DNA of 30,815 nt. Source: a virus. Its lineage: Duplodnaviria > Heunggongvirae > Uroviricota > Caudoviricetes. The stretch is from the IMG/VR virus record IMGVR_UViG_2531839668_000005. One strand, given 5' to 3'. The notes beneath the pieces are model-generated. The model was not told the DNA's origin. It ran no database searches and saw only the letters and a list, made by a program, of their open reading frames with translations. The translations under genes were made by a program, and so were the position numbers. Of the stretch, positions 1,323 to 26,824 are shown one piece after another (position 1 is the first letter of the stretch; every line of letters begins with the position of its first letter).

Positions 1323-1529
1323 ATGAAAAATCAAGCAACCCGCCTCATACGCTTACCAGAAGTTCTCGAACGAACTGGCTACGGAAAAGCCTGGATCTAT
1401 CGTCTGATCAACGATGGCAAGTTTCCTGCTCCTGTCAAAATTGGAAGTCGTGCAATAGCTTTCGTTGAAAGTGAGATTGATAGCTGGATTCAGTCTGTTA
1501 TCGAAACAAGTCGAAATAATGTTGCTTAA
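1323..1529 (+). CDS. alpA: AlpA-family phage/island transcriptional regulator (excisionase-like HTH)
   Basis: 68 aa; sequence RLIRLPEVLERTGYGKAWIYRLINDGKFPAPVKIGSRAIAF is the characteristic AlpA/Xis-type helix-turn-helix of P4-like islands such as CP4-57. Confidence 0.8.
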   Translation: MKNQATRLIRLPEVLERTGYGKAWIYRLINDGKFPAPVKIGSRAIAFVESEIDSWIQSVIETSRNNVA

Positions 1530-2914: not shown

Positions 2915-3478
2915 TTAAAATGGAATGCCGTCTGCAGGATTTCGTCTTCTGGAGTTTTTAACTGATTTTGTTTTACTCCAGGCACGATAAAAATTAAACG
3001 AATTGGCAAAATCTTCTGTCTCCAGTCTGGATTTTCTGAATTTATCCATCAGATCTTCATTGAAACGACGAGGAATTCCCTTAACGCACAAGTTTGAATT
3101 CAGATATACCTGATTATCTATGGTGTCACGAATAAGTATTTTTTTTCCAAATAACTCTTTGAATGCACGTGAAACATTTGATTTATTCAGCCCAAGCTCT
3201 TTGGCAGTACGTGACTGTGAAAAATCAGGAATAATATTACCGTAATCAATGGCTGAGAAGAGATAAATCACAATTCTAAATGCTGTAGGCGTCAAATCCA
3301 TTCTGGCGAGTGTCGCCATATTACCTTTAAATACCATTGAGAAATCGTCCTTGAAGGACGTCTTTTTATAGCTGGTTGCTTTAATTTTTATTTCTTCTAG
3401 ATCTTCGGGCATAACCTCTAATGCTTCTGCAATAATGGATTTTTGTTCTTTAGTTAATACAACACTTGTGATTGACAT
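2915..3478 (-). CDS. putative winged-helix/HTH DNA-binding protein (replication-initiator-like or regulator)
   Basis: 187 aa; segment AKELGLNKSNVSRAFKELFGKKIL resembles an HTH recognition helix; three iteron-like direct repeats lie about 450 bp away. Confidence 0.45.
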   Translation of the reverse strand: MSITSVVLTKEQKSIIAEALEVMPEDLEEIKIKATSYKKTSFKDDFSMVFKGNMATLARMDLTPTAFRIVIYLFSAIDYGNIIPDFSQSRTAKELGLNKSNVSRAFKELFGKKILIRDTIDNQVYLNSNLCVKGIPRRFNEDLMDKFRKSRLETEDFANSFNFYRAWSKTKSVKNSRRRNPADGIPF

Positions 3479-3939
3479 AATGGCTCCTTTTTTATTGTTG
3501 TGATTACAGACATGGCATATTTAATTTATTTGTCAATGGTTTTGATGATATTATTTTAATTATATCTTATTTGAATTTTTTATCCGTTCTTTGGTGGTGG
3601 TAATAGGTTGTAAAATTTGAAACGAGGGGTGCTAAATTTAACCATCACCTGTTATGTGATTGATAATTTTTGGTGCTGAAATTAACAACGGCATATTTTG
3701 TATAATCATATGATTTTATTAGATAATTTTTGATTTTGATCTGCAAGATAAAAGAGTGATAAAGAAATAAGAAACCACAGTTTTGCATTTGATCGATACT
3801 CAAGGCCTTGGTGTACCTGATGAAAACATTTTTATTATTGCTTTTCTTAAATAATATCATTTGTAAATTGAAGCCTGCGCAACTGTGTGTTACGCCCCAT
3901 TGGGCTTCAGAACATCACTATAGTGTTTTCAGTCAGTAT

Positions 3940-4053
3940 AAATACGCTTCGCGCACGAGTTCACAGTATTTAGGTTTACTGTCATTAAAAATACGCTTCG
4001 TGCAGAAGTTCAGAAAAATGGGGTTAGCTGTCAGCACAAATACGCTTCGCGCA
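3940..4053. repeat. three direct repeats of AAATACGCTTCG(C/T)GCA at 49-bp spacing (iteron-like)
   Basis: Copies at 3940-3955, 3989-4004 and 4038-4053; the first two continue with the related GAGTTCACAG / GAAGTTCAGA extension. Confidence 0.7.
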
Positions 4054-4517
4054 AAAAAAAATCAGGAGGCTAAGTTGATCGGGAAAGCGAACACAGATAC
4101 ATGATTTACCCGTTTGCTGACTACGGCTCACGCCGGGACCCTTCGGAAAAACCCTTTCTGCTTCAGCGAGTGAGTGCTGCGGGCACTCAGAGGCGCTGCC
4201 AGGGAGACAAAATTAAGTTTTTCAACTGTTTGGTAAAAATAATTAACATTTATAGGTAGTCGGGGCGTAAGCCAGTGCGTAGCACGCTCTCAAAAAATAT
4301 TCCTGTGGGTTTCTTATCTGCAATAGGGAAATAACTCAGATAATTGATATATGAAAAAACAATACAATCGGGAAGACACAACTTTAGCACAGTAAAAGCT
4401 ATTTGTATTTATGAGGAATAAAATATATATGAATAATAAAATATTTTTATTTTGCTATTGATTTTAATTTTTAAGATGATAGTACTTAATTATAAAAACA
4501 AAATAATGGAGGATATT

Positions 4518-4943
4518 ATGAGTGCTATTAATGTGTTATCTCAGGAGGAAAAATTTATACATGTTGTTGATAAATTTATAACCCATAATCACAACGGCGT
4601 TAATAACAATGTCTTTTATAAAAAACTTTATGTTCTCTTCGCCGGATATCATCTGAAGTATTTTTATTCACGGGCGCAATATCGCAATTCGTGTTATCAC
4701 GTTGATAATATCATGCAGATGTTTATGGGTGTCGTTTCTACCCTGAAGACCCCTCTGCTCAGGCAACTCGCAAACAGTGACACATTGCTGCATTGCCTGA
4801 ATTCGCTCGTGAATTATATTTCAGGCAATCTGGATGAAGCAGAGCACATTTATGCTGATTTACTGGCACAGTATGAAAAGAAACGCATTGCACGTTCTCT
4901 GGCTTATACACCACCAGGATCCGTGGTCAGGAAAAGACTGTGA
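4518..4943 (+). CDS. hypothetical protein (141 aa from the ATG at 4518)
   Basis: GGAGG 8 nt upstream of the ATG at 4518 (the track ORF starts earlier at 4452). C-terminus ...PPGSVVRKRL matches the C-terminus of the ankyrin protein at 8169-9122. Confidence 0.5.
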   Translation: MSAINVLSQEEKFIHVVDKFITHNHNGVNNNVFYKKLYVLFAGYHLKYFYSRAQYRNSCYHVDNIMQMFMGVVSTLKTPLLRQLANSDTLLHCLNSLVNYISGNLDEAEHIYADLLAQYEKKRIARSLAYTPPGSVVRKRL

Positions 4944-6327: not shown

Positions 6328-7563
6328 TTATGGTGCAGGATGGTTGTTGTTTTTAAATGATTGTTCTTTATTGGTATTTGTTGTCATGGGATGACAGGGT
6401 GTCAGAATATGTAGGTGGAGGATTTGGTGGAAAGGATGTGCAGTGGCATGTAACAGAGACATGCCTCTGCGCCTGAGAAGTGCCACAATATGGACGAGCA
6501 ATACAAGCCATGAATACAGACGACGCTGGCGGGGTATCTGACGAGCTGTATTGTGCAGATTGCTCCTGAGCTGGATGATACCCACTGTCTCCTGTTGTCT
6601 TTCCAGACGAATTTTTTCTTCAAGCTGATGGATTTTCTCCAGAATCGTTTCCCGGTTTGCAGCCTGCTCTTCAGACTCGCATGATGGCACTGGCACTGGC
6701 ACTGGCACTGGCACTGGCACTGGCACTGGCGCGGTTGTAGGTTCTATTGGCCTCTGGGCTTCTTTCAGTAAACTCAGATGCTCAGGCGTAAAATCAATCA
6801 GTGCTTGCAGGGAAGACCAGCCATATTTTTTACCCAACTGAGATGCTTTAAAGGCAATACCCTGGTATTGAAATGAAAATCCACTCATTTTACCCGTAGT
6901 GGCGATATTGGGTTTGCAGGTCACTCCTTCCTGTTCCAGTAAGCGAACAAAGGTTAGTAAATCGGGATGGTGTGTTAATGCATTGTCGAGCAGGGCCTGC
7001 AACAGTGACTTAGGGCAGGGAGCTGCTGTGCGTTCTGCCATCATCAGTTCATTACGGGAAGGCTTCCTTTTATCCTGGCGGCTACTGCCGGTTACACCCG
7101 TAGTTTCGGTGAGGCCGTGTACTCTCTCCAGCTCACTGATAATCCGTGTGCCGATAAGATTTTCATTTTTCCCCAGGTACAGTTTTCCACCGACCATGTT
7201 AATACGACTTGCAATGATATGAATATGCTGCCCATCCGGATCATCGTGCATGATATAGCAGCGAAGATGGGTGTCAGTGAAGCCCATTCGGGCCATATAA
7301 TCGTCAGCGAATGCTGCCCACTGTCTGTTTGACAGTTTCTCACCCTTTGGCAGGCGAAGTGAATTATGCCAGACAGGTTTGGCGACATCGGGACGCAGCA
7401 GTCGGGTGCCTTCAAATTCACTTATAAGCTCAGCAGCAGTGCTACCCGTCATGTTGCCACCGATGACATAAGGCGTGATTTTGTGGTGAGAACCTGACTT
7501 CAGGCTATAAATAACCACACCTGTGAATTGTTTACCCCTTTTTATTTTCTGCATGCCTTTCAT
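6328..7563 (-). CDS. mobA: MobA/relaxase-family mobilization protein (C-terminal boundary uncertain)
   Basis: N-terminal region contains the relaxase histidine triad context (HDDPDGQHIHIIASRI) and an early Tyr; start overlaps the mobC stop. Includes a (Pro-Val)7 linker; sequence after the linker is low-complexity and may not all be coding. Confidence 0.7.
   Translation of the reverse strand: MKGMQKIKRGKQFTGVVIYSLKSGSHHKITPYVIGGNMTGSTAAELISEFEGTRLLRPDVAKPVWHNSLRLPKGEKLSNRQWAAFADDYMARMGFTDTHLRCYIMHDDPDGQHIHIIASRINMVGGKLYLGKNENLIGTRIISELERVHGLTETTGVTGSSRQDKRKPSRNELMMAERTAAPCPKSLLQALLDNALTHHPDLLTFVRLLEQEGVTCKPNIATTGKMSGFSFQYQGIAFKASQLGKKYGWSSLQALIDFTPEHLSLLKEAQRPIEPTTAPVPVPVPVPVPVPVPSCESEEQAANRETILEKIHQLEEKIRLERQQETVGIIQLRSNLHNTARQIPRQRRLYSWLVLLVHIVALLRRRGMSLLHATAHPFHQILHLHILTPCHPMTTNTNKEQSFKNNNHPAP
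6688..6729. repeat. (CACTGG)7 perfect hexanucleotide tandem repeat
   Basis: Seven uninterrupted CACTGG units on the plus strand; on the minus strand they encode the PVPVPVPVPVPVPV linker inside mobA. Confidence 0.95.
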
Positions 7564-7967
7564 GGGTCTGACTCCAGAAATGTTGAGGGAATAAGGTGAT
7601 CCCTGAGAGTTTTGATTTGTCTGCGCAGGGCGAAGAGTTCTGTACGGGTCAGTTCGCTGTCAGGGCTTTTGCTGTCGAGATGACTCAACAGGTAGTTTAA
7701 ATCCTGTGAAAGGCTGCCAAGTTTTATCCATGCTTCACGATTGATTTCTGGCAGAACCGGCGGGAGTTTATTCAGGGAAGCCATCCTGAGCCATTCTCCT
7801 TTTTTATACTGACCTCTTTTACTGTCGAGAATAATTAATTCTTCTTCATTTAATCTGACACTGATGCAGTGATGTCGTATTTCATTCTCAGGAAATTTGT
7901 CAGTATGGAATTTACCGCGTTTTGATACTCTGGTTATATCATCATCATTACTCATGTCACTGTTCAT
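7560..7967 (-). CDS. mobC: MobC-like relaxosome accessory protein
   Basis: 135-aa ORF directly upstream of and overlapping the relaxase gene start, the conserved mobC-mobA arrangement; ELFALRRQIKTLRDHL region is typical of the family. Confidence 0.6.
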   Translation of the reverse strand: MNSDMSNDDDITRVSKRGKFHTDKFPENEIRHHCISVRLNEEELIILDSKRGQYKKGEWLRMASLNKLPPVLPEINREAWIKLGSLSQDLNYLLSHLDSKSPDSELTRTELFALRRQIKTLRDHLIPSTFLESDP

Positions 7968-8168
7968 AGTTATCCTTTTATTTCATGTTTATTACTACAG
8001 ATAACCGATGAAATGAATAAGTCAAGTTGTTACGGGATAAATAATTTAATTATCTGGATTAAAAAAGGTATACCATTTGACAAATAGTATACCCACGAGG
8101 ACATATCAGATTAATGGTCATTAAATGAATCCTTGCAGACTAAGAAAAGGGTTGTTTACTCCAGAGTT

Positions 8169-16927: not shown

Positions 16928-18157
16928 TTATGCGGCAATAACTTTGTATTTTTGAGACGAAACATAGTCACTCCACCATTGCATGAGAACCACACGTTCT
17001 GTGAGATACTCTGCACGATTGTAGGCTGCAATTATTTCATCTTTTTTCGAGTGGGCAAGGGCGGCTTCTAAGACATCAGTTCTAAACTTGCCACACTCCT
17101 CAGCCGCCGTTCTAGCGATTGATCGCATACCATGAGCTACAAGCTCACCTCCGAAGCCCATACGGATTATAGCCGCATTAGCTGTTTGTTCATGCATGTG
17201 ATTGAGTGGAGCTTTGATACTGGGAAAAACCCACTCTCTATGCCCGCTGATGGCTTTCATTGAATCCAAGACTCGCAAAGATTCTTTGCTCAGTGGAACT
17301 TTGTGAGGCTTCTTCATTTTCATAAACTCCGCCGGGATGTTCCACATGCTGGTTTCTATATCAATATCTGACCATCTTGTGCGAACAGCTTCACCAGGGC
17401 GAACCCATGTGAGAAGTTGCCACTCAATCAGTAGCCTTGTTTCTAAACGGATAGAAGCATTGTTTAGAGCAACCAGGAAGCGGGGGAGTTCGGAAGGGGG
17501 TAATGCTGGCATATTCTGTTTTTTTGGCTTGCTGAACCGTTGCCCCAGGTTGTCAGCCGGATTGAATTCTATGAGTTCTTCTGTTGCTGCATAGCGGAAA
17601 ATTTCATTCAGGCGGGATATGACGCGGCGAAGTGTTTCAAGGACACCTCGTTTTTCTATGGGGTCTAAATGCTGTTTAAGCATTTTAGGGCGAATCTCCT
17701 TAATGGGGGTATCACCCAACGTTGGAAAGATATTTCTCTCTAGGCTTCGCCAGATGTCGTTAGCATGATCCTGGGAGATGCCTGACGTTTTGACTTTCTC
17801 ATCAAGCCACTTCTTGGCTACTGCTTGAAATGTATGTTCCGTTGCATCCTTAAGGGCATTGGCTTTGTGGGTGTTATGAACTTGTGGGTCTATACCATTT
17901 GCAAGCAACGACAAGTACTCATCACGTAAAGCTCGTGCCTTCGCAAGTGTAAGGTGAGGATAGGTTCCTAAGCTCACCTTAGTTCGCTTTTTGGTCACAG
18001 GCACTGCATATCTGAAATACCAATTTTTCTTTCCTCCCTTCGCTAAGGGGGCGATTCGCAGGAGCAAACCATCGCCGTCAAAAAGGTTAACCTCTTTCTC
18101 GGCAGGTTTGGTGCTTTTGATTTCAGTGTCAGTGAGCTTCTTAGCGATTTTTGCCAT
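16928..18157 (-). CDS. int: P4-type tyrosine integrase
   Basis: From the ATG at 18155-18157: MAKIAKKLTDTEIKSTKPAEK...GLLLRIAP...WYFRY... N-terminal arm-binding domain and C-terminal HGMRS...Y catalytic region typical of P4/CP4-57 integrases; adjacent to the ssrA-derived att repeat. Confidence 0.85.
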   Translation of the reverse strand: MAKIAKKLTDTEIKSTKPAEKEVNLFDGDGLLLRIAPLAKGGKKNWYFRYAVPVTKKRTKVSLGTYPHLTLAKARALRDEYLSLLANGIDPQVHNTHKANALKDATEHTFQAVAKKWLDEKVKTSGISQDHANDIWRSLERNIFPTLGDTPIKEIRPKMLKQHLDPIEKRGVLETLRRVISRLNEIFRYAATEELIEFNPADNLGQRFSKPKKQNMPALPPSELPRFLVALNNASIRLETRLLIEWQLLTWVRPGEAVRTRWSDIDIETSMWNIPAEFMKMKKPHKVPLSKESLRVLDSMKAISGHREWVFPSIKAPLNHMHEQTANAAIIRMGFGGELVAHGMRSIARTAAEECGKFRTDVLEAALAHSKKDEIIAAYNRAEYLTERVVLMQWWSDYVSSQKYKVIAA

Positions 18158-18323
18158 GTTTGGGACCCTCATGTTTTGGACCCTTTGTGTTGGGTCCCAA
18201 AAAGGGTGCCATAACGAGTAGATTCTAGCAATTCTCGGTAGACTACTATAGACGTAAAAAAGCCCGCAAGGCTGGTTCCATGCGGGCTTGATAGACTTCA
18301 CTGAACTTCAATATATCAAAAAT

Positions 18324-19130: not shown

Positions 19131-20147
19131 TTACCTCAAATTAAATAAAGGATTTTTAGTTACGGCATCTTCTAAATGGTCTGGGGCGAAGTGTGCATAG
19201 ACCATGGTCATTTTTATATCTGAATGTCCTAGGATATCCCGCAAAACCAATATGTTTCCACCATTCATCATAAAATGGCTAGCGAATGTATGACGCAGAA
19301 CGTGAGTACATTGACCCTCTGGCAGATCGATACCAGCCCGCTTTACTGCACGCTCAAAGGCTTTTCTGCATGGGGTGAATAACTTCCCCCTATTCTTAGG
19401 CAGTTCTTCATATAAATCCTTAGAAATAGGCACAGTTCGGTTTTTCTTGCCTTTGGTCTTGGTATAAGTGATACGGTATTTTGATACCTGATGACTCTGC
19501 AGGTTTTCGGCTTCGCTCCAGCGTGCGCCGGTGGCCAGGCATATTTTTGCAATCAAAAGCAGGCTGGAGCTTTGAGAATCGGCGCAGGCATCCAGCAGAC
19601 GTTTAATTTCTTCCGGGGTCAGGAACGCCAATTCACTCTCAGCAATTTTAAATGTTGGCAGCCCAGCAAGCGGGTTGGGGGCTGACCAGTGGCCCAGCTT
19701 TTTCAGCGTACCAAAAACAGATGATAGATTGCGCTGTTCAAGGTTTACCGTGCGGGGCTTAACGGGCGACATAAACGTGCCATCTTCATTTCGTACTTCA
19801 CCTTTTAACCGTGCTTCGCGGTATTTCGTAAAGTCACCGGCTGTCAGTTCTGAGGCGATGGGGTCGCCTAGACCATTACAGATAATTCTAAGTTTCGCCA
19901 TGAGGCGCTTGGGGTCTGCGAGTGTCTGACCATACAGGGAATACCAAAGCTCAATTAATTCTGATAGGTGTCGCCGATCATCCTTTTCTCCTAACCACGG
20001 TTTTTTGTTCACTTCTTCCATTGTGAAGCTTTCAAATGCAATGGCTTCGCCTTTGGTAGCAAATTGCTTACGCACGCGCTTACCATTGCGTCCATTGGGA
20101 TAGCACTCACACAACCATTTTCCGTTCGGCTGTTTTCTGATGGTCAT
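19131..20147 (-). CDS. int: P2/186-type phage tyrosine integrase
   Basis: N-terminus ...YPNGRNGKRVRKQFATKGEAIAFE... and C-terminal HVLRHTFASHFMMNGG...LGHSDIKMTMVYAH catalytic region; followed by the CI repressor gene on the same strand. Confidence 0.85.
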   Translation of the reverse strand: MTIRKQPNGKWLCECYPNGRNGKRVRKQFATKGEAIAFESFTMEEVNKKPWLGEKDDRRHLSELIELWYSLYGQTLADPKRLMAKLRIICNGLGDPIASELTAGDFTKYREARLKGEVRNEDGTFMSPVKPRTVNLEQRNLSSVFGTLKKLGHWSAPNPLAGLPTFKIAESELAFLTPEEIKRLLDACADSQSSSLLLIAKICLATGARWSEAENLQSHQVSKYRITYTKTKGKKNRTVPISKDLYEELPKNRGKLFTPCRKAFERAVKRAGIDLPEGQCTHVLRHTFASHFMMNGGNILVLRDILGHSDIKMTMVYAHFAPDHLEDAVTKNPLFNLR

Positions 20148-20150
20148 AAG

Positions 20151-20789
20151 TTAGAGGTTCTTGATTACTTTGACTGCACGTCCTACAACTTCCACATCAT
20201 CTACAGAACATTCAAATGAAGTGTCATCTTGGCTAACTACTATTTTGTTTCCGGGTATGCGCGCAATTTTGACGATGCTTTTAACTCCGTCCATATCGAC
20301 TAACCAGAAGCCATTACTGACTTGTTTAACGGACGTATCCACTACAAAGCTATTATTAGCTGTTTTAACAAATAAAGCGTTGGATGAGTCACCATCGAGC
20401 AGGCTGCTATCAAGAAGAATTTCATCACTTGCCTGCAGTTCGCCGTTCTTCAGTTCAACACGTTTGATGCTAGGAGCAACGATCTTAGAAAGTGGTCTTA
20501 CAGTGACGGGAGGTTCATTTTTGAGATTTGTTTCTTCGTTCTCACACGCATACATATCTCCTTGACCAGTAGCCAGCCATAGAAGGGAAGCTCCTGTTTC
20601 AAGGGCACATTGAATTACCCATTCGGCAGGAAAGCTATCCCTTAAGTATCTGTTAGCCATAGTGCTTTTGGATACTTCCAGATGTTCGCAGAGCTGCTGT
20701 CGTGAGCTGAAGTTGTAAGCCTTAATAAGCCTGTTAATTGCATCGCGCCCACCACTATCATTTCCCGCTTTGATTAAACTCATAATCAA
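20151..20789 (-). CDS. cI: 186-like CI immunity repressor
   Basis: CALETGASLLWLATGQGDMY and C-terminal WLVDMDGVKSIVKIARIPGNK...FECSVDDVEVVGRAVKV closely resemble phage 186 CI as recalled. Confidence 0.75.
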   Translation of the reverse strand: MIMSLIKAGNDSGGRDAINRLIKAYNFSSRQQLCEHLEVSKSTMANRYLRDSFPAEWVIQCALETGASLLWLATGQGDMYACENEETNLKNEPPVTVRPLSKIVAPSIKRVELKNGELQASDEILLDSSLLDGDSSNALFVKTANNSFVVDTSVKQVSNGFWLVDMDGVKSIVKIARIPGNKIVVSQDDTSFECSVDDVEVVGRAVKVIKNL

Positions 20790-20794
20790 ACCTC

Positions 20795-20823
20795 TTGACG
20801 TATATAAAAAGTGATCTTAATAT
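20795..20823 (+). promoter_or_regulatory. sigma70-type promoter candidate for the early lytic operon (pR-like)
   Basis: TTGACG (20795-20800), 17-bp spacer, TAATAT (20818-20823), in the cI to apl intergenic switch region. Confidence 0.45.
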
Positions 20824-20899
20824 CCATTCATGGTTTGAAAAGCAAAACCAAACCACATAAAACAAGATAAAACGAAACCAAACTAAGAGATACTGCACT

Positions 20900-21058
20900 A
20901 TGAGTACTGATATTTCAATTCGTGTACCAAAAGAGATGGCAACGCCTGCTGAGTTCGCTGAATGGGAAGGTATCTCCCGCGGCTCTGTGTATCAAAAAAT
21001 TCACCATGGTCAGCTTGCTAAATACATGGTCAAGAAGGAAAAAACAAAGGCCGCGTAA
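20900..21058 (+). CDS. Apl/Cox-like small HTH excision-regulatory protein (52 aa)
   Basis: Small ORF, not in the supplied track, at the position of apl/cox in P2/186-like phages; translated by eye as MSTDISIRVPKEMATPAEFAEWEGISRGSVYQKIHHGQLAKYMVKKEKTKAA. Confidence 0.5.
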   Translation: MSTDISIRVPKEMATPAEFAEWEGISRGSVYQKIHHGQLAKYMVKKEKTKAA

Positions 21059-21173
21059 GCCTGCGTTATTTAATGTACAAAACCGATCAGGTCCGTGAAT
21101 CCCTCGGTCATTCCAACTTCCGCGTCATTGTTGGTAAGTAAGTTCAATTATGAGAACTTTCTAAGGGGGTAGC

Positions 21174-21683
21174 ATGTTTGATTATAAGATTTCCAAACAC
21201 CCGCATTTTGATGAAGCCTGTAGAGCTTTTGCACTTCGTCACAATATGGCGAAGCTGGCAGAACGTGCAGGAATGAATGTCCAGACTCTGCGAAACAAAC
21301 TCAACCCAGATCAACCGCATCAGCTCAATGCGCCAGAAATCTGGCTGCTTACCGATCTGACTGAAGATTCAACGCTGATAGATGGTTTTCTGGCACAGAT
21401 TCACTGCCTGCCATGTGTACCGATTAATGAGGTAGCAAAAGAGAAACTGCCGCATTACGTCATGAGTGCAACCGCAGAGATCGGGCGTGTTGCTGCAGGT
21501 GCGGTATCTGGCGATGTAAAAACCAGTGCCGGTCGTCGTGATGCCATCAGCAGCATTAATTCTGTAACACGACTGATGGCGCTGGCGGCTGTTTCATTGC
21601 AGGCCCGTTTACAGGCTAACCCTGCGATGGCGAGTGCAGTTGATACTGTGACTGGCCTCGGTGCTTCATTCGGTTTGCTGTGA
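21174..21683 (+). CDS. cII: 186-like CII regulatory protein
   Basis: 169 aa, HTH region AKLAERAGMNVQTLRNKLNP; position and size match phage 186 CII. Confidence 0.65.
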   Translation: MFDYKISKHPHFDEACRAFALRHNMAKLAERAGMNVQTLRNKLNPDQPHQLNAPEIWLLTDLTEDSTLIDGFLAQIHCLPCVPINEVAKEKLPHYVMSATAEIGRVAAGAVSGDVKTSAGRRDAISSINSVTRLMALAAVSLQARLQANPAMASAVDTVTGLGASFGLL

Positions 21684-21690
21684 GGTGCTT

Positions 21691-21987
21691 ATGCTGACGA
21701 AAGAACCATCATTTGCGTCGCTGCTGGTAAAACAAAGTCCGGCAATGCACTACGGTCACGGCTGGATCACGGGTGAGGATGGAAAACGCTGGCATCCATG
21801 TCATTCACAAGATGAATTGCTGTCTGAATTGACCACGAGGAAACGGAGAAAGTCCAAATGTATGCGGCAGAAAGTGAAGTGGTTTATCAGTTTCGTTACA
21901 GAGGGGAGAGTTATTCAGTACCTGAAGATGATTTGCTCTGTTGCTATCCGTCATTGTCGGGCGATGGCAGTTACTTTTTCACGTTAA
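21691..21987 (+). CDS. hypothetical phage early protein (possibly Fil-like); 3' boundary uncertain
   Basis: ATG at 21691 preceded by GAGGTG; overlaps the next ORF in another frame, so one of the two boundaries is wrong. Confidence 0.3.
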   Translation: MLTKEPSFASLLVKQSPAMHYGHGWITGEDGKRWHPCHSQDELLSELTTRKRRKSKCMRQKVKWFISFVTEGRVIQYLKMICSVAIRHCRAMAVTFSR

Positions 21988-22082
21988 AGGATGGGACGTT
22001 TTTACGGGGAGAGCAGGTTAAAGAGACGATACGAAAAAATGTATCTCCTCTTGAGCGTTACCGTAAGAACAAAGAACGATAG
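21858..22082 (+). CDS. hypothetical phage early protein (74 aa)
   Basis: ATG with GGAGAAAG upstream; within the early operon. Confidence 0.4.
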   Translation: MYAAESEVVYQFRYRGESYSVPEDDLLCCYPSLSGDGSYFFTLKDGTFLRGEQVKETIRKNVSPLERYRKNKER

Positions 22083-22104
22083 CTGCGTTTGGGGGATATG
22101 AAGT

Positions 22105-22446
22105 ATGGCAATTAATGGCGCTGCAGCAACTGTTCCATTAAGCCCCGGTGAACGCCTGAATGGACTTAATCACATTGCGGAGTTAAGGGCGAAAGTTTTT
22201 GGCATGAATATTGAGTCAGAGCTTGAGCGGTTTATTAAAGATATGCGTGATCCACGGGATATCAATAATGAACAAAATAAACGGGCACTGGCTGCCATAT
22301 TCTTTATGGCAAAAATTCCAGCTGAACGTCATAGCATCAGCATTAATGAGCTGACCACTGACGAAAAGCGGGAGCTGATTAAAGCAATGAATCATTTTCG
22401 TGCAGTGGTGAGCTTATTTCCCAGACGGCTAACCATGCCGAATTAA
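22105..22446 (+). CDS. hypothetical phage early protein (113 aa)
   Basis: ORF in the early operon; no family recognised. Confidence 0.45.
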   Translation: MAINGAAATVPLSPGERLNGLNHIAELRAKVFGMNIESELERFIKDMRDPRDINNEQNKRALAAIFFMAKIPAERHSISINELTTDEKRELIKAMNHFRAVVSLFPRRLTMPN

Positions 22447-22513
22447 CCAACTAATGAAATTAATGGCGTAAACCCGCCGGGCATCCCTTTATCTAAATTC
22501 AGGAGAATTGATT

Positions 22514-22747
22514 ATGCGTAATATTGAAACCCTCACGACTAAAACCGGACCGGATGATGCAGGGCTTAATATTTTACTGACAGAGGCTCGTCTGGAAGAA
22601 CGCCGGGCAAGGGCTGAAGCAATGGCAGCTCGCCTTGATAGCCTGGCGTGTCATATCACATCCCGCCAACTAAACCACGTCGAAGCGGCAGAACTGCTGC
22701 GTGTGACTGCTGAAGCAATCCAGAACGAAGCGCAGGAGATCCACTGA
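22514..22747 (+). CDS. hypothetical phage early protein (77 aa from the ATG at 22514)
   Basis: AGGAG at 22501-22505 before the ATG at 22514; stop overlaps the next start (TGATG). Confidence 0.45.
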   Translation: MRNIETLTTKTGPDDAGLNILLTEARLEERRARAEAMAARLDSLACHITSRQLNHVEAAELLRVTAEAIQNEAQEIH

Positions 22748-22974
22748 TGGCTGATGCAATGGATCTCGTACAGCAGCGAGTTGAAGAAGAACGCCAACGT
22801 CATATCCGTGCTGCCCGTGCCAAAGCGCCGGGCGTGTCCCGCGTGCTTTGCGTTGAGTGTGAAGCGCCAATTCCGCCAGCACGCCGCCGTGCCATTCCGG
22901 GGGTGCAGCTTTGCATTACCTGTCAGGAAATCGCAGAGCTGAAAGGCAAACATTACAACGGAGGTGCTGTATGA
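22747..22974 (+). CDS. TraR/DksA-family C4 zinc-finger protein
   Basis: 75 aa with CVECEAPIPPARRRAIPGVQLCITCQ (Cys-x2-Cys ... Cys-x2-Cys), as found in the P2-like zinc-finger early protein. Confidence 0.7.
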   Translation: MADAMDLVQQRVEEERQRHIRAARAKAPGVSRVLCVECEAPIPPARRRAIPGVQLCITCQEIAELKGKHYNGGAV

Positions 22975-23828
22975 GCACCATCCTGAAATGGGCGGGAAAT
23001 AAAACCGCCATTATGTCCGAACTGAAAAAACACCTTCCTGCTGGCCCGCGACTGGTTGAACCTTTCGCGGGTTCCTGTGCTGTGATGATGGAGACGGATT
23101 ACCCCAGCTATCTGGTTGCGGATATTAATCCTGATTTAATCAACCTCTATAAAAAGGTTGCTGCTGATTGTGAATCGTTTATATCTCGCGCCAGAGTTTT
23201 ATTTGAGATCGCAAACAGGGAGGTGGCTTATTACAACATAAGGCAGGAGTTTAATTACTCCACTGAAATTACTGATTTCATGAAAGCGGTATATTTCCTG
23301 TATCTCAATCGTCACGGTTACCGTGGTTTATGTCGCTATAACAAGAGCGGGCATTTCAACATTCCCTACGGTAATTATAAAAATCCGTATTTCCCTGAAA
23401 AAGAAATTCGCGCATTTGCAGAAAAGGCCCAGCGAGCAACGTTTATCTGCGCCAGCTTTGATGAAACGCTGGCGATGTTGAAGGCGGGGGATGTGGTGTA
23501 TTGCGATCCGCCGTATGACGGTACGTTTTCCGGCTATCACACTGATGGTTTCACTGAAGATGACCAGTATCACCTGGCATCTGTTCTTGAACATCGGTCA
23601 TCAGAAGGACATCCGGTCATTGTTTCTAACAGTGACACATCCCTGATCCGTTCGCTGTATCGCAATTTTACTCACCACTACATCAAGGCAAAACGCAGCA
23701 TCGGTGTGGCAGCTGGCGAGGGTAAATCAGCAACAGAAATCATTGCTGTTTCCGGGCCGCGCTGCTGGGTGGGATTTGATTATTCGCGTGGCGTGGATAG
23801 TTCTGCCGTGTACGGAGTACGTGCATGA
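22971..23828 (+). CDS. dam: DNA adenine methyltransferase (Dam-like, N6-adenine, DPPY motif)
   Basis: [11 protein letters not shown]...FAGSCAV (AdoMet-binding region) and YCDPPYDG catalytic motif; GGAGG upstream of the ATG at 22971; stop overlaps the gene A start (ATGA). Confidence 0.85.
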
Positions 23829-26239
23829 GCCATGCCGATATGAACAACTGCTGCGGCTTTAACGAGGCTGCCGCATCGTTCTCATGGAACAGCCCGAAAA
23901 AGGCCATTAACCCTTATCTGGACCCGGCGGAAGTTGCGCCGGTTTCTGCGCTTTCAAACCTGATCACTCTGTACGCTGCCGATAACGAGCAGGAACAGCT
24001 GCGCCGCGAGGCACTGAGTGATCAGGTCTGGGAGCGTTATTTCTTTAATGAATCCCGTGATCCTGTCCAGCGCGAAATGGAGCAGGATAAGCTCATTAGT
24101 CGGGCAAAGCTGGCGCATGAGCAGCAGCGTTTTAATCCAGATATGGTCATTCTGGCGGACGTCAATGCCCAGCCTTCCCATATCAGCAAGCCGCTGATGC
24201 AACGTATTGAATACTTCAGCAGCCTGGGCAGGCCAAAGGCTTATTCCCGCTATTTGCGTGAGACGATTAAGCCATGTCTGGAACGACTGGAGCATGTACG
24301 CGACAGTCAGCTATCCGCTTCTTTTCGCTTTATGGCAAGCCATGAAGGGCTGGATGGCCTGCTTATCCTGCCTGAAATGAGTCAGGATCAGGTGAAGCGC
24401 CTGTCTACCCTTGTCGCTGCGCATATGAGCATGTGCCTTGATGCAGCTTGTGGTGATTTGTATGCCACCGATGACGTTAAGCCAGAAGAAATCCGCAAGA
24501 CATGGGAAAAGGTGGCAGCGGAAACCCTGCGTCTGGATGTTATCCCGCCTGCGTTTGAGCAACTCCGTCGGAAAAGAAACCGCCGTAAACCCGTGCCCTA
24601 TGAACTCATTCCGGGTTCGCTGGCGCGTATGTTGTGCGCTGACTGGTGGTACCGGAAATTATGGAAGATGCGTTGCGAATGGCGGGAAGAGCAGTTGCGT
24701 GCTGTCTGCCTGGTCAGCAAAAAAGCATCTCCCTATGTCAGCTATGAAGCCGTGATGCATAAACGTGAGCAGCGCCGTAAGTCGCTGGAGTTTTTTCGTT
24801 CTCATGAACTGGTGAACGAAGACGGCGACACGCTGGACATGGAGGATGTGGTAAACGCCAGCAGCAGCAACCCTGCGCATCGCCGCAATGAGATGATGGC
24901 CTGTGTTAAAGGCCTGGAGCTTATCGCGGAAATGCGTGGTGACTGCGCCGTTTTCTACACCATTACCTGTCCGTCACGTTTCCATTCCACGCTCAATAAC
25001 GGCAGACCAAACCCAACCTGGACAAATGCGACGGTAAGACAAAGCAGCGATTATCTGGTCGGCATGTTTGCTGCATTTCGTAAGGCGATGCACAAAGCCG
25101 GGTTGCGCTGGTATGGCGTGCGGGTGGCTGAGCCGCATCATGACGGTACGGTTCACTGGCACCTGTTGTGTTTCATGCGCAAAAAAGACCGCCGTGCCAT
25201 TACTGCATTGTTGCGTAAGTTTGCCATCCGTGAAGACCGCGAGGAACTGGGTAATAACACTGGTCCACGCTTTAAATCTGAGCTGATAAACCCGCGCAAA
25301 GGAACACCGACAAGCTACATCGCGAAATACATTAGTAAGAACATTGACGGGCGTGGTCTGGCTGGCGAGATCAGCAAGGAAACGGGTAAATCCCTGCGTG
25401 ATAACGCTGAATACGTTAATGCCTGGGCGTCTCTGCATCGTGTTCAGCAATTCCGCTTCTTTGGTATTCCGGGGCGTCAGGCTTACCGTGAACTGCGATT
25501 GCTGGCTGGTCAGGCGGCAAGGCAACAGGGCGACAAAAAAGCAGGTGCGCCGGTACTGGATAACCCGCGCCTTGATGCCATCCTGGCTGCTGCTGATGCT
25601 GGTTGTTTTGCCACTTACATCATGAAGCAGGGTGGTGTACTGGTTCCCCGCAAATATCACCTCATCAGAACTGCTTATGAAATTAACGAAGAGCCGACCG
25701 CCTATGGCGATCACGGCATTCGTATTTATGGCATCTGGTCACCCATTGCAGAGGGCAAGATCTGCACTCATGCAGTGAAGTGGAAAATGGTTCGTAAAGC
25801 CGTTGACGTTCAGGAGGCGGTAGCCGACCAGGGCGCTTGCGCCCCTTGGACTCGTGGCAATAACTGTCCCCTTGCTGAAAATTTGTACCAACAAGGGAAA
25901 GACAAATCAGCTGATGGAGATACCAGAACGGATATCACCCGCATGGATGACAAGGAGTTGCACGATTACCTGCACAGTATGAGCAAAAAAGAGCGCCGGG
26001 AACTGGCAGCAAGGTTACGCCTGGTGAAACCGAAACGGCGTAAAGACTACAAACAGCGAATTACAGATCATCAGCGACAGCAGCTCGTGTATGAACTGAA
26101 GTCCAGGGGATTTGATGGCAGCGAGAAAGAGGTCGATTTACTGCTTCGCGGCGGCAGTATTCCGTCAGGAGCAGGCCTGCGTATCTTCTATCGGAACCAG
26201 CGTTTGCAGGAAGATGATAAGTGGCGAAACCTGTATTAA
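23825..26239 (+). CDS. P2/186 gene-A-type rolling-circle replication initiator (HUH endonuclease)
   Basis: HWHLLCF (HUH motif) and SYIAKYISK (catalytic tyrosine motif); roughly 800 aa, as for P2 gpA. Confidence 0.85.
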
Positions 26240-26331
26240 TTACGCGGGTTAACAATTCGTGCTCTTAATAATACCAGGCATATCAGGCCGATGAGCGTAA
26301 AAAAACGTTTTACATCAGTAAGATTATTATA

Positions 26332-26351
26332 TACTGTAAATATAAACAGTG
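26332..26351. promoter_or_regulatory. LexA (SOS) box
   Basis: taCTGTaaatataaACAGtg: exact CTGT-N8-ACAG with an AT-rich spacer, about 40 bp upstream of the 26392 ORF. Confidence 0.6.
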
Positions 26352-26391
26352 GTTATTTATACAGTATTTCTTTGGTGTTATAGGAGGAAAG

Positions 26392-26580
26392 ATGCAGGAC
26401 TATTTTTTGGAGTCTTTGAAGCTCCAGCGCATTGATTTTTTTCTTAAGCTTGTAGCGGCTAGTGAGTGTAGTGATGAAGAGAAGGGGCTGGCTTTGCAGT
26501 GGGTTTCTGAACTGACAGATGAACTCATGGCAAAAATCAGAACCCACGAATACAACCGCTCAATGGATGTCATCAGTTGA
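26392..26580 (+). CDS. hypothetical protein, possibly the N-terminal part of a Tum-type SOS-inducible antirepressor
   Basis: GGAGG before the ATG; immediately downstream of the LexA box; overlaps the upstream extension of the DinI-like ORF in another frame. Confidence 0.4.
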   Translation: MQDYFLESLKLQRIDFFLKLVAASECSDEEKGLALQWVSELTDELMAKIRTHEYNRSMDVIS

Positions 26581-26590
26581 GGTGACTTTT

Positions 26591-26824
26591 ATGCGCATTG
26601 AAATAATGATCGATAAAGAGCAGAAGATTAGCCAGTCTACCCTGGACGCCTTTGAATCCGAGCTTTACCGCAATCTGCGCCCCCTGTATCCCAAAACGGT
26701 AATTCGTATCCGTAAAGGTAGCTCTAACGGTGTGGAACTGACCGGACTGCAACTGGACGAAGAAAGGAAACAAGTAATGAAAATTATGCAGAAGGTGTGG
26801 GAAGACGACAGCTGGCTGCATTAA
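26591..26824 (+). CDS. DinI-family protein (Tum C-terminal-domain-like)
   Basis: MRIEIMIDKEQ...YPKTVIRIRKGSSNGVELTG...VWEDDSWL parallels E. coli DinI (MRIEVTIAK...VSVRYAAANNLSVIG...TWESADDWF) as recalled. Confidence 0.7.
   Translation: MRIEIMIDKEQKISQSTLDAFESELYRNLRPLYPKTVIRIRKGSSNGVELTGLQLDEERKQVMKIMQKVWEDDSWLH

Follow-up and report, generated by a model that had tools for sequence, protein, structure and literature searches.

A candidate replication origin of a pHW126-like replicon, with a possible ssi-like accessory part, in a chromosomal mobilizable island

The direct repeats and the nested hairpin at positions 3940 to 4210 of the 30,815-nucleotide stretch of DNA analysed here (the window) are, with a probability that we put at roughly 0.7 from sequence comparison, part of the replication origin of a pHW126-like replicon located in a chromosomal mobilizable island. 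That this segment forms the rep-distal part of an origin of about 1 kb (3479-4517) and includes an ssi-like mechanism is, by analogy with the small plasmids of the family, slightly favoured. The origin of a captured plasmid-derived replicon had been one suggestion of a preliminary description of this DNA, and it is supported by the homology of Rep, by synteny and by purifying selection on non-coding blocks. The features of the region are listed in Table 1.

Table 1. Positions of rep and of the sequence features found in the adjoining spacer
Feature	Position	Strand	Basis
rep, 187 aa, single winged helix	2915-3478	-	BLASTP, tblastn, Pfam profile
rep-proximal GGGTG..CACC	3626-3650		compensatory variant in relatives
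palindrome TTATGTGATTGATAA	3652-3666		matches TTATG-N6-ATAA iteron core of closest plasmids
purine/pyrimidine tract, rep-sense GGTTTCTTATTTCTTTAT...	3743-3777	-	invariant
stem-loop GAAGCC-TGCGCAAC-loop-GTT(G/A)CGC-bulge-GGCTTC	3866-3910		DNA MFE and centroid folds
tandem 49-bp units, n=3	3920-4053	-	in-register copies, TRF, alignments of relatives
A9 run and weakly conserved spacer	4054-4114		conservation 0.55 and 0.28
GC-rich block ACGGCTCACGCCGG + GGGACCCTTCGGAAAAACCC	4115-4159	-	CGGC..GCCG pairs, conservation
nested hairpin TTCAGCGAGTGAGTGCTGCGGGCACTCAGAGGCGCTG	4160-4198		all folds; 22 distinct sequences
conserved block GGGGCGTAAGCCAGTGCGTAGCAC, small hairpin GTGC-GTA-GCAC	4262-4322		conservation
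conserved block ATATTCCTG..TTATCTG	4262-4322		alignment of relatives

The gene nearest to the repeats, described beforehand as encoding an HTH protein, indeed encodes a winged-helix homologue of pHW126-like initiators, a family that takes in pHW126 Rep, pIGRK RepR and pIGMS31 RepM. By BLASTP, its product Rep is 47% identical over 164 aa (E 7e-55) to the Rep of a 2.8-kb plasmid, relatives at this level of identity being the main ORF of 2.7-2.8-kb plasmids, 40% identical over 131 aa (E 1e-30) to RepM of pIGMS31, and 30% identical (E 7e-15) to Rep of pHW126. A tblastn search of PLSDB gave 46 records, mostly plasmids of 2.3-3.1 kb and some of them annotated RepL, and about 65 Rep homologues lie on contigs of 2.6-2.9 kb. 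Since the homologues are the only or main ORF of plasmids of 2.4-2.8 kb, the main job of this Rep family should be initiation. The island Rep and the plasmid Reps have a sub-threshold Pfam profile in common (HTH_36, Phage_rep_O, RepL and Rep3_N), and the island Rep has the same recognition helix, SNVSRAFKEL, as the Reps of the 2.8-kb plasmids. The 187 residues of the island Rep include no histidine, and hence no HUH motif. Rep is not an initiator of the Rep_3 type with two winged helices: Rep3_N matched at E=0.028, its 15.2 bits falling short of the cut-off of 22.4, and the AlphaFold model, made from an alignment of 14 sequences, contains one wHTH core at low confidence (pLDDT 55). A sequence search of the PDB with Rep returned weak matches to MarR and Cro only. 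As far as sequence tells, Rep is a clear homologue of pHW126-like small-plasmid initiators, and its current names, 'MarR/Crp family regulator' and 'hypothetical', are probably misleading.

The gene order of the module is rep, spacer, a divergent gene of 141 aa, relaxase and mobC. The arrangement of rep, 1-kb spacer and mobilization module is syntenic in about 25 loci of more than 12 enterobacterial genera (22 loci from genome contigs and four E. coli variants). The integrases that it adjoins are of two types or more: in three loci (L003-L005) a tyrosine recombinase next to mutS, and in L002 another integrase; because the module thus moves as a unit between islands with different integrases, it would be the replicon of an integrative mobilizable element (IME). 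The island carries AlpA, DUF6387, a MobA/VirD2-type relaxase and a MobC-like gene, and by its integrase and excision genes, its relaxase and its chromosomal location at different sites it is classed here as a putative IME. The element was found in 107 of 5,426 complete E. coli genomes, at 108 places, all of them chromosomal. In the E. coli lineage of the window no integrase stands beside the DUF6387 end and the relaxase is truncated in some copies, so that the copy in the window may be inactive. Islands that are intact occur in E. coli F247, H1 and NIPH17_0020 and at loci L002-L004. Homologues of the 141-aa gene were found only within this island family, none of them annotated.

The spacer between rep and the divergent 141-aa gene is non-coding and carries no annotation in RefSeq. 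As judged from the aligned relatives, non-coding blocks within it are under purifying selection. In close relatives the identity of rep is 0.91-0.98 at codon positions 1-2 and 0.71-0.87 at the third; the nested hairpin reaches 0.92 and 0.89, against 0.71 and 0.52 for rep third-codon positions. The tract has an identity of 0.94 among all relatives and 0.92 among distant ones, and conservation was 0.81-0.84 for 3626-3668, 0.86 and 0.76 for 4262-4290, and 0.80 and 0.67 for the GC-rich block; two more conserved blocks, at 3510-3535 and 4456-4517, are promoter-proximal. The surroundings are AT-rich as described before, with GC contents of 0.28-0.33 in the flanks and of 0.43-0.45 in counting windows over 3801-4400. 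No DnaA box was found in the spacer. Comparison of the spacer, or of its GC-rich piece, with the PLSDB plasmids gave only chance matches of 20-40 nt, and k-mer sharing between the spacer and four pHW126-like plasmids was at the level of noise. A XerCD/cer-like site at 4230-4258 was considered and rejected, its XerD arm being mismatched when compared by eye with the dif/cer consensus.

Close to rep, 3626-3668 is from its sequence a candidate duplex Rep-binding site or operator. Its GGGTG..CACC element has a compensatory GGGG..CCCC variant in L028 and L029, and its TTATG-N6-ATAA motif occurs at an equal position in most related loci, including those of Yersinia; the same motif is the core of the iterons, four copies each, of two plasmids, L007 and L008. 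Because the recognition helix is identical between the island Rep and the Reps of the 2.8-kb plasmids, this AT-rich palindrome, rather than the GC-rich core of the 49-bp repeats, is indicated as the duplex site. Farther from rep, the tract is the sole block of the spacer that could be aligned to pHW126-like plasmids: in an nhmmer comparison with a database of four plasmids it matched L007 at 1975-2000 (E=0.018) in the same orientation relative to rep, the aligned stretch being 20 nt. The window has a single occurrence of its pattern, against an expected 0.04. In the plasmids the tract is flanked by ssi and by the conserved region, close to where the pIGMS31 nick was mapped; the plasmid conserved region itself, about 20 bp long and common to the family's members (CCCTTGnTATTACTcACTT in alignment A2), was not recognised in the window, where only the neighbouring tract aligns. 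The stem-loop at 3866-3910 has a compensatory GAAGTC..GACTTC variant in L030 and L031. On the far side of the hairpin, the block at 4262-4322 includes a GCGTAGC mini-hairpin on the plus strand, and the stem of its small hairpin underwent A-T to G-C changes in L020 and L028. Part of this block, 4262-4297, may resemble the ColE1 bom region, a likeness kept out of the argument.

The three copies of the core at exact 49-bp phasing noticed beforehand were borne out. In-register copies lie at 3920-3955, 3969-4004 and 4018-4053, with start-to-start spacings of 49 and 49, and the 16-nt core AAATACGCTTCG(C/T)GCA stands on the plus strand at 3940-3955, 3989-4004 and 4038-4053, the second with one mismatch, C to T, in a middle unit that is degenerate in the window. 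TRF reported 3925-4053 with a period of 49, 2.6 copies, 76% matches and a score of 139. When both strands of the 30.8 kb were searched with up to three mismatches, these three core matches and no others were found, against 0.30 expected by chance, and none of 100 shuffles reached three. The core forms an imperfect palindrome (TACGC-TTC-GCGCA). Its rep-sense reading is TGCGCGAAGCGTATTT, which includes the GAA-loop mini-hairpin GCGAAGC. A search for intrinsic terminators gave one 'terminator-like' match, the repeat core itself.

Among relatives the number of units is one to three, the distance to the rep ATG staying at about 465 nt, and orthologous units resemble each other more than paralogous units do. 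Other genera have the core, the spacing of 49 bp and the hairpin too, at an equal distance from the HTH gene, which is more than chance would give; the array is unrecognisable in the most distant relatives. Some relatives have one unit or none, yet keep rep, tract and hairpin. Reckoned to the start codons, the repeats are some 440 nt away from rep and some 465 nt away from the 141-aa gene, and these distances bear on the proposal that they are an operator or regulator array for rep, for the 141-aa gene or for both, with no role in replication. The annotation of the protein as MarR/Crp-like by several sources, the autoregulation of family Reps and the location between divergent genes agree with such an array, but the distances count against it, the conserved promoter-proximal blocks lie elsewhere, and homologues that are the only or main ORF of tiny plasmids point to initiation. 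An operator array is therefore held to be improbable.

The GC-rich nested inverted repeats of the preliminary description were confirmed as a hairpin at 4164-4198, with stems CAGCG (4164-4168), TGAGTGC (4171-4177), GCACTCA (4183-4189) and CGCTG (4194-4198) and TGCGG in between. The hairpin is present in the MFE and centroid DNA folds of both strands; the whole 231-nt stretch folds no better than shuffled sequences (z -0.73 and -1.88). Across 22 distinct sequences that represent more than 12 genera, all 12 stem pairs are retained, one pair being G-C in 20 sequences and G-T in two, and substitutions are confined to the loop and the bulges. With stems this invariant, zero compensatory changes were seen in the main helices among the 22 sequences; the fold is thus a predicted one, without support from covariation. 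In the weak outer helix, wobble-type changes speak for the plus strand rather than for the rep-sense strand. In the adjacent GC-rich block none of the 22 sequences departs from the CGGC..GCCG pairs, and a CCGAAGG mini-hairpin stands on the rep-sense strand at 4140-4146. The segment between this block and the repeats is deleted in L028 and L029.

The earlier statement that the region has no convincing ORF holds, in that the ORFs 3808-4104 and 4101-4259 exist without conservation in relatives. A coding role for them, including a coupled AGGAGG-TTG...ATGA pair, was rejected on the grounds of indels of the 49-nt unit, 1-nt indels and one group lacking the ATG region; the AGGAGG/TTG/ATG arrangement within 4054-4114 is not conserved. 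The earlier suggestion of a structured small RNA, for instance an antisense copy-number regulator or a primer RNA encoded by the GC-rich segment, did not hold up. A conserved hairpin within AT-rich intergenic DNA and G-T wobble-type variation fitting plus-strand folding would suit an RNA, and the pIGMS31 origin holds promoters of undefined purpose (PMC6854812; bioRxiv 10.1101/2022.12.05.519187). Against it, Rfam gave no match in the whole window at gathering thresholds and none overlapping the repeats or the hairpin at E up to 5, no flanking promoter or terminator consensus was found, and the invariant stems and the shuffle-like folding energy of the stretch point the same way; this explanation is very improbable. 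The window contains no tRNA or tmRNA gene.

For the origin, the closest comparison is with the pHW126-like plasmids: pHW126 of Rahnella, and pIGRK and pIGMS31 of Klebsiella (PlasmidFinder types Col(IMGS31) and Col(IRGK)). Their origins consist of an ssi-like palindrome, a conserved region and direct repeats; their Reps bind the iteron-like repeats and the conserved region, autoregulate, and relax or nick DNA; and their ssi is non-essential, its loss leading to multimers (PMC6854812; bioRxiv 10.1101/2022.12.05.519187). In pIGMS31, the ssi-like element is dispensable for initiation, and it primes or organises lagging-strand synthesis and prevents multimers (PMC6854812; bioRxiv 10.1101/2022.12.05.519187). 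The island shares with these plasmids a homologous single-wHTH Rep without HUH motif, preceded by a GC-rich ssi-like palindrome in AT-rich DNA, by direct repeats and by the alignable tract, and also the GCGAAGC-type mini-hairpins on the rep-sense strand a few hundred nucleotides upstream of rep. It differs in being chromosomal and within an IME, whereas the plasmids are 2.3-3.1 kb in size, in a control region of about 1 kb against about 0.4 kb, and in its MobA/VirD2-type relaxase and MobC-like protein, against MOBV in pIGMS31 and pHW126 and a reported MobK in pIGRK (PMC8152469). Counted outward from rep, the order in the island is iteron-like palindrome, tract, then hairpins and repeats, and in the plasmids iterons, conserved region, tract and ssi. 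This mapping hangs on a thin anchor, since the similarity between spacer and plasmids is limited to the one 20-nt tract, and the correspondence with the ssi-like GC-rich palindrome is one of position and structure only, without sequence homology. By this analogy, the hairpin at 4160-4198 is proposed as the counterpart of the family's ssi-like palindrome.

Four of eight pHW126-like plasmids have GCGAAGC on the rep-sense strand, at 280-520 nt upstream of rep, with a chance of about 0.012 per plasmid and a binomial tail of 1.3e-6. Of the four plasmids added after this idea was formed, two have the motif. The idea itself arose post hoc, and three of the plasmid occurrences share sequence context and so are not independent. 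GAA mini-hairpins number five in sense and one in antisense, and in pIGMS31 three stand at a spacing of 44-45 nt, immediately 5' of the mapped nick. Mini-hairpin motifs of the GAA type are known at the priming sites of G4 and of RSF1010 ssiA (PMC13037366). The G4-type oric and RSF1010 ssiA likewise have GC stems with GAA loops (GCGAAGC, CCGAAGG) on one strand near the origin, but the similarity to the island is limited to the motif, which in the island, unlike there, sits in a conserved 16-nt core every 49 nt.

By analogy with the plasmids, the following course of events is proposed. Once the island is excised, Rep would bind duplex sites near its own gene, among them the TTATG-N6-ATAA palindrome and possibly others, and opening or nicking of the origin by Rep would follow close to the invariant pyrimidine tract (3777-3743, rep-sense strand). 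The nested hairpin and the three 49-nt units would work in single-stranded form, as structures in the rep-sense strand, with one very stable GCGAAGC mini-hairpin in each unit, and together they may be the ssi-like counterpart that primes or organises lagging-strand synthesis and prevents multimers. The segment is read as such a rep-distal accessory part because GCGAAGC is contained in each repeat and recurs in half of the plasmids, and an accessory element fits the variable number of units and their loss in distant relatives. For the 49-bp repeats specifically, an ssi-like role is a tentative assignment, at somewhat less than even odds.

The main rival to an ssi-like role is that the repeats are true iterons, duplex sites at which cooperative binding of Rep would open the origin and set incompatibility and copy number, as at IT1-4 of pIGMS31 or in theta replicons, the hairpin alone being ssi. 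The family is marked by direct repeats upstream of rep, the cores resemble plasmid iterons in being imperfect palindromes, the repeats lie between the GC-rich hairpin and rep, and family Reps are reported to bind dissimilar sequences (PMC6854812; bioRxiv 10.1101/2022.12.05.519187). The conserved core of 16 nt also exceeds the 7-nt mini-hairpin, and its palindrome would suit a duplex-binding protein too. The earlier label 'iteron-like' needs qualifying: the direct repeats are real, but their period of 49 bp, out of helical phase, differs from the 21-22 bp of the family's iterons, their number varies, and they lie on the far, ssi side of the alignable tract, with a better match to the iteron core at 3652-3666. 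Iterons in the plasmids number three to four at 21-24-bp spacing; the island lacks the four iterons of about 20-22 bp directly upstream of rep and has instead one to three 49-bp units, 440 nt from rep in the window and rep-distal of the tract, and a single TTATG-N6-ATAA site. Moreover, relatives with none or one unit keep rep, tract and hairpin, whereas pIGMS31 needs every iteron; 8 bp between half-site centres is little for a dimer of a winged-helix protein; and the same recognition helix serves plasmid Reps whose iterons are AT-rich and unrelated. True iterons are thus judged unlikely.

The constant linkage of the rep-spacer block to relaxase and mobC, seen in every locus, means that phylogenetic profiling cannot assign the hairpins to Rep or to the relaxase, and it is also the starting point for reading the segment as part of oriT, with relaxosome accessory sites and a hairpin by the nick site. 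The MobA/VirD2-type relaxase, encoded 2 kb away, has sub-threshold MOBP-like matches, and TTATCTG at 4314-4320, following small hairpins, resembles the MOBP nick core. But the window contains 17 copies of TTATCTG, conservation of the putative nick region breaks down in L030-L032, where the hairpin is kept, and no similarity to a plasmid oriT was found in the PLSDB comparison. A more typical oriT candidate is an inverted repeat that immediately precedes the mobC-like gene (8067-8093); a diverged island group has a different inverted repeat in its place. An oriT at the repeats therefore has little probability.

The 49-bp units may also be compared with a centromere-like partition site bound by a partition protein, in the style of F sopC, which has 43-bp units with a short palindrome in each. 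Long-period tandem units with a palindromic core, and two ParB_N/RepB-like genes at 13312-15101, are what such a site would call for. Yet neither ParA nor ParB is encoded in the conserved module, the ParB-like genes lie 9 kb off, past an IS, and not syntenic in relatives, and one to three units are very few, which leaves a partition site highly improbable.

As a replicating integrative mobilizable element, the island is comparable to SGI1 (Rep_3-type RepA/oriV), PIME (repA, iteron oriV) and GIsul2: all are chromosomal islands with an integrase, AlpA, their own initiator, a repeat-bearing origin and mobilization genes, and by analogy excision, transient replication and mobilisation would be expected here as well. 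The RepL/pHW126-like initiator of the island is unrelated to their Rep_3, RepA or RepC, and the island, unlike them, has no DnaA box and no trbJ, trbL or traJ gene. Identity with PIME of the 2026 preprint was rejected, this being a separate island family with a different repA. Replication has been demonstrated for SGI1 and PIME1 (PMC7433901; bioRxiv 10.64898/2026.01.12.698999); for the island it is a prediction. With the theta iteron origins of R6K, pPS10 and F (RepE; Rep_3), the island has in common direct repeats beside a winged-helix initiator gene; it differs in one wHTH against the WH1-WH2 pair, in the 49-bp period, in repeat copies that are few and variable, and in that no DnaA box was found.

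What is new is the setting, a pHW126-type initiator with a related, rearranged origin that, on present evidence, lies inside an integrative mobilizable element. The initiators named in a review of IMEs are Rep_3, RepA/RepC, replisome organisers and Rep_trans (PMC5704250), and the island would add a further family to this short list. The pHW126-like replicons are small and poorly understood plasmids, for which the island is a fresh context, offering comparative material beyond the tiny plasmids in the form of conserved blocks, natural repeat-number variants and the recurrent mini-hairpin; its spacer could be annotated as a candidate oriV. Whether the family replicates by rolling circle or theta is disputed in the literature, its initiator being without classical rolling-circle motifs. 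A wider and rather doubtful idea, founded on the three mini-hairpins at 49 nt in the island and the three at 44-45 nt in pIGMS31, is that spaced GAA-loop mini-hairpins are the working ssi units of the whole pHW126/RepL-like family, with the islands as its chromosomal reservoir. If true, the repeats would be a modular array for single-strand priming or nick presentation, not iterons, and the natural alleles with one, two and three units could settle the choice between rolling-circle and theta replication.

Three in-register repeat copies were identified in the non-coding spacer between rep, which encodes a 187-aa winged-helix protein, and a divergent gene, with start-to-start distances of 49 and 49 bp, exactly the phasing given in the preliminary description. 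On both strands of the 30.8-kb window, the 16-nt core AAATACGCTTCGCGCA (one position C to T in the second copy) was matched at up to three mismatches by these three copies only, against 0.30 matches expected by chance, and none of 100 shuffles reached three. TRF detected a single array (3925-4053, period 49, 2.6 copies, 76% matches). The GC content was 0.43-0.45 across windows of 3801-4400 versus 0.28-0.33 on either side. The GC-rich inverted repeats were also found as described, CAGCG..TGAGTGC-TGCGG-GCACTCA..CGCTG forming a nested hairpin in the DNA folds of either strand, minimum-energy and centroid alike. Two ORFs run across the segment (3808-4104 and 4101-4259), but neither is the convincing ORF whose absence had been noted: the sequences of relatives are set apart by entire 49-nt units and 1-base indels, and the start region is missing from one group of relatives. 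The core counts, the array, the folds, the GC content and the unconserved ORFs altogether indicate that the segment is real, non-random and non-coding.

The whole 231-nt stretch folded no better than shuffles (z -0.73 and -1.88). Among 22 distinct sequences of the nested hairpin, all pairs were retained (one of them G-C in 20 and G-T in 2), substitutions were confined to the loop or bulges, and no covariation was detected in the stems. Since the constraint is strong and covariation absent, recognition of the hairpin sequence itself is as likely as folding. The structured small RNA suggested earlier becomes a lesser alternative, because no Rfam family match, promoter/terminator pair or covariation was found.

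Features of the window, with identity of spacer blocks among all 11 relatives / the five most distant
Feature	Position	Strand	Identity	Remarks
DUF6387 gene	195-1040
AlpA gene	1323-1529			small ORFs next in order
rep (HTH gene)	2915-3478	minus		followed by 1,039-bp spacer
GGGTG..CACC	3626-3650		0.81 / 0.66	includes GGGTGCTAAATTTAACCATCACC
TTATG-N6-ATAA palindrome	3651-3668		0.84 / 0.74	TTATGTGATTGATAA at 3652-3666
Purine/pyrimidine tract	3743-3777		0.94 / 0.92	gAtAAAGAAAtAAGAAAcc
Stem-loop	3865-3911		0.78 / 0.69	3866-3910: GAAGCC..GGCTTC around GCGCAAC..GTTGCGC
Repeat copies	3920-3955, 3969-4004, 4018-4053			cores at 3940, 3989, 4038
ACGGCTCACGCCGG block	4115-4159		0.80 / 0.67
CCGAAGG	4140-4146	rep-sense		like GCGAAGC of repeat core
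Nested hairpin	4160-4198		0.92 / 0.89	folded part 4164-4198
GGGGCGTAAGCC..GTGCGTAGCAC	4262-4290		0.86 / 0.76
Divergent 141-aa gene	4518-4943			then three small minus-strand ORFs
MobA/VirD2-type relaxase	6328-7563	minus
135-aa MobC-like gene	7560-7967	minus
Inverted repeat GGTATACCATTTGACAAATAGTATACC	8067-8093			near-perfect
Ankyrin-repeat gene	8169-9122			past MobC-like gene
IS3-family transposase	10540-11406
ParB_N/RepB-like genes to integrase	13312-18301			two neighbouring ParB_N/RepB-like genes first
Serine recombinase	15731-16651
P4-type integrase	16928-18301
P2-like prophage start	19131-30630			integrase, CI repressor, Dam-type methyltransferase, GPA replication protein, portal

The window is chromosomal E. 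coli DNA. A 981-bp spacer sequence was found in 107 of 5,426 complete E. coli genomes, chromosomal every time and under no annotated feature, and gave no nucleotide match among 72,556 plasmids. Some E. coli islands carry the block from rep to the MobC-like gene beside mutS, together with one tyrosine recombinase, and others have it elsewhere, accompanied by a different integrase; it was also found in 22 loci of Superficieibacter, Citrobacter, Leclercia, Enterobacter, Phytobacter, Pseudocitrobacter, Atlantibacter, Kluyvera, Lelliottia, Salmonella diarizonae, E. ruysiae and Yersinia pekkanenii. Such recurrence is the hallmark of an integrative mobilizable element whose integration modules are exchangeable. 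The window's copy may be partly decayed, because no integrase adjoins its DUF6387 end and, among loci with identical Rep, the relaxase is truncated in some copies.

The relaxase contains a (Pro-Val)n run; loci with identical Rep encode relaxases of 405 to 420 aa, truncated copies and loci lacking the gene also occurring. The 141-aa gene is linked to the spacer in every case and has homologues within this island family only; its product matched no Pfam, PHROG or NCBIfam family. An IS3-family element parts the rep-mob module from the ParB_N/RepB-like, recombinase and P4-type integrase genes, which are not syntenic with the module in relatives. Accessory genes of relatives (L033-L040) include DUF4928, NA-iREase2 and RelA/SpoT-like genes beside the ankyrin-repeat protein, all possibly defence cargo.

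Two other roles within such a module were considered for the segment, both as lesser alternatives. An oriT is disfavoured because nick-like TTATCTG is common in the window and because the DNA upstream of the MobC-like gene offers a more conventional candidate; there, the inverted repeat GGTATACCATTTGACAAATAGTATACC, replaced by a different inverted repeat in diverged H1-type islands, is likely to be the oriT recognition repeat for the island relaxosome. A partition site is disfavoured by the lack of partition genes in the conserved module.

Pfam searches of the island Rep and of plasmid Reps gave the same pattern of sub-threshold hits only (HTH_36, Phage_rep_O, Cro, Rep3_N). A large protein search yielded two populations of relatives, one 59-96% identical on long chromosomal contigs, the other of about 65 members with 44-48% identity, the longest contigs being 2.6-2.9 kb. 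By tblastn against PLSDB, the latter were small enterobacterial plasmids of 2.3-3.1 kb, with the Rep homologue, annotated RepL in some copies, as the only or main ORF; pIGMS31 (NC_011406, type Col(IMGS31)) and pHW126 (NC_019295) are among the plasmids bearing homologues. BLASTP aligned the island Rep with the Rep of a 2.8-kb plasmid (47% over 164 aa, E 7e-55), RepM of pIGMS31 (40% over 131 aa, E 1e-30) and pHW126 Rep (30% over 120 aa, E 7e-15). The predicted recognition helix SNVSRAFKEL is identical between island Reps and those of the closest plasmids, and the island Rep contains no histidine and hence no HUH motif. As judged from this homology, the rep product is a homologue of plasmid initiators.

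In published work on the pHW126 family (PMC2831885, PMC6854812, bioRxiv 10.1101/2022.12.05.519187), the REP module comprises an ssi-like (single-strand initiation) palindrome, a conserved region (CR) of about 20 bp, four iteron-like repeats of 20 bp, operator repeats and the rep gene. The same studies report that the Rep protein binds both the iteron-like repeats and the CR, acts as a repressor at its own promoter and relaxes supercoiled DNA; that the pIGMS31 nick falls between 2268 and 2269; that plasmids can do without the ssi, though copy number then rises and multimers form; and that both rolling-circle and theta intermediates are observed.

An alignment of 12 representatives with a per-block identity table, read against rep third-codon identity as the neutral yardstick (0.71 in the 82-84% Rep group, 0.52 in the 66-67% group), revealed patchy conservation along the spacer, with blocks of strong and of weak conservation and with the DNA between blocks showing 0.5-0.6 identity in all and 0.3-0.4 in the most distant relatives. 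Small compensatory changes were found in three elements other than the nested hairpin, namely the stem-loop (GAAGCC/GGCTTC to GAAGTC/GACTTC, in Salmonella diarizonae and E. ruysiae), GGTG/CACC of 3626-3650 (to GGGG/CCCC) and the GTGC-GTA-GCAC hairpin. The tract, whose pyrimidines are on the rep-sense strand, does not vary between E. coli and Yersinia. No other non-coding block of the spacer is as conserved, and no other can be aligned to pHW126-like plasmids, which makes the tract a candidate for the nick or core-origin region. The element GGGTGCTAAATTTAACCATCACC resembles GGTGATAAATTTAAC, present twice in pHW126 (L010; 1397-1411 and 1451-1465) upstream of the ssi, a likeness of nhmmer E only 0.48 that may be chance.

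Searched against a small database of four plasmids, an island-spacer profile gave one noteworthy match (E=0.018), which pairs the tract gAtAAAGAAAtAAGAAAcc with AAT-AAGAAAGAAGAAACC of 2.7-kb plasmids; both run the same way with respect to rep. The tract-derived pattern occurs once in the window versus 0.04 expected. From rep outward, the plasmid order is iterons, CR, tract and ssi, and the window order is GGTG..CACC, palindrome TTATGTGATTGATAA, tract, stem-loop, 49-bp units and GC hairpins. By tract alignment and this order, the 49-bp units would occupy the place of the plasmid ssi. On the same mapping, the AT-rich palindrome, which most related loci, Yersinia included, keep in the same place, is the likely duplex Rep-binding site; it has TTATG-N6-ATAA in common with the iteron ATTATGAAAATCATAAT (four copies) of the closest 2.7-2.8-kb plasmids.

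The repeat units recur in homologous islands, with the core about 465 nt from the rep ATG in every locus carrying it and a spacing of 49 bp except in one group (39 bp). Three copies are present in the window and four relatives (L013, L014, L016, L017), two in eight loci (L011, L012, L015, L018-L021, L025) and in two E. coli islands short of exactly one unit (NIPH17 and CAVP773), two again in L023, L024 and L026, where one core is a variant at 39-nt spacing, and one in L028 and L029; the units are unrecognisable in L030-L032, though rep, tract and hairpins are retained there. Orthologous units from different genera are more alike than units inside one array, so the triplication is ancient, with later unit loss. 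Across these loci the array is conserved yet dispensable.

The rep-sense (minus) strand of each core, TGCGCGAAGCGTATTT, includes GCGAAGC (degenerate in the window's middle copy, intact in relatives), an exceptionally stable GAA-loop mini-hairpin that the priming sites of G4 and RSF1010 (ssiA) also contain (PMC13037366). In four of eight pHW126-like plasmids, GCGAAGC occurs upstream of rep at a distance of 280-520 nt, in the rep-sense strand (chance about 0.012 per plasmid; binomial tail 1.3e-6, three occurrences sharing flanks and so not being independent). The mini-hairpin idea arose post hoc, after the data were seen; the motif was found in two of four plasmids fetched afterwards. In the eight plasmids, GAA mini-hairpins number five sense versus one antisense. 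In pIGMS31, GCGAAGC (2144) and CGGAACG (2188, 2233) lie 44-45 nt apart on the rep-sense strand, with a GCGTAGC and the mapped nick following shortly 3' of them. In the distant island relatives L028 and L032, the rep-sense strand has a further GCGAAGC about 300 nt before rep, separated by 3 nt from the pyrimidine tract that follows it; the window has GCAAAAC there.

The position relative to the tract, the plasmid-shared motif, the strand bias and the dispensability tentatively suggest that repeats and hairpin are an ssi-like, accessory, single-strand part of the origin. A serious though rather unlikely rival is that the repeats are classic Rep-bound duplex iterons: the conserved core, an imperfect palindrome, exceeds the mini-hairpin in length, and there are reports of family Reps binding dissimilar sites. 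A pure operator array is a lesser possibility.

The origin of a plasmid-derived replicon proposed in the preliminary description gains support from the Rep homology to plasmid initiators, the syntenic island block and the conserved non-coding blocks. With a probability of about 0.7, a pHW126-family replicon inside a mobilizable island has its origin and control region at 3479-4517, each mechanistic step (replication, binding, nicking, priming) being one that we infer. Such an origin differs from those of pHW126-like plasmids in its one to three 49-bp units, its 1-kb control region and the lack of a recognisable CR. SGI1 (PMC7433901) and the PIME family (bioRxiv 10.64898/2026.01.12.698999) are established cases of islands that, once excised, replicate from iteron origins of their own, and the initiators of such elements are listed in a review as Rep_3, RepA/RepC, replisome-organiser and Rep_trans (PMC5704250). 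The pHW126 family papers make no mention of chromosomal or island-borne relatives. Within the searchable literature, then, an integrative mobilizable element with a pHW126/RepL-like replicon is undescribed.
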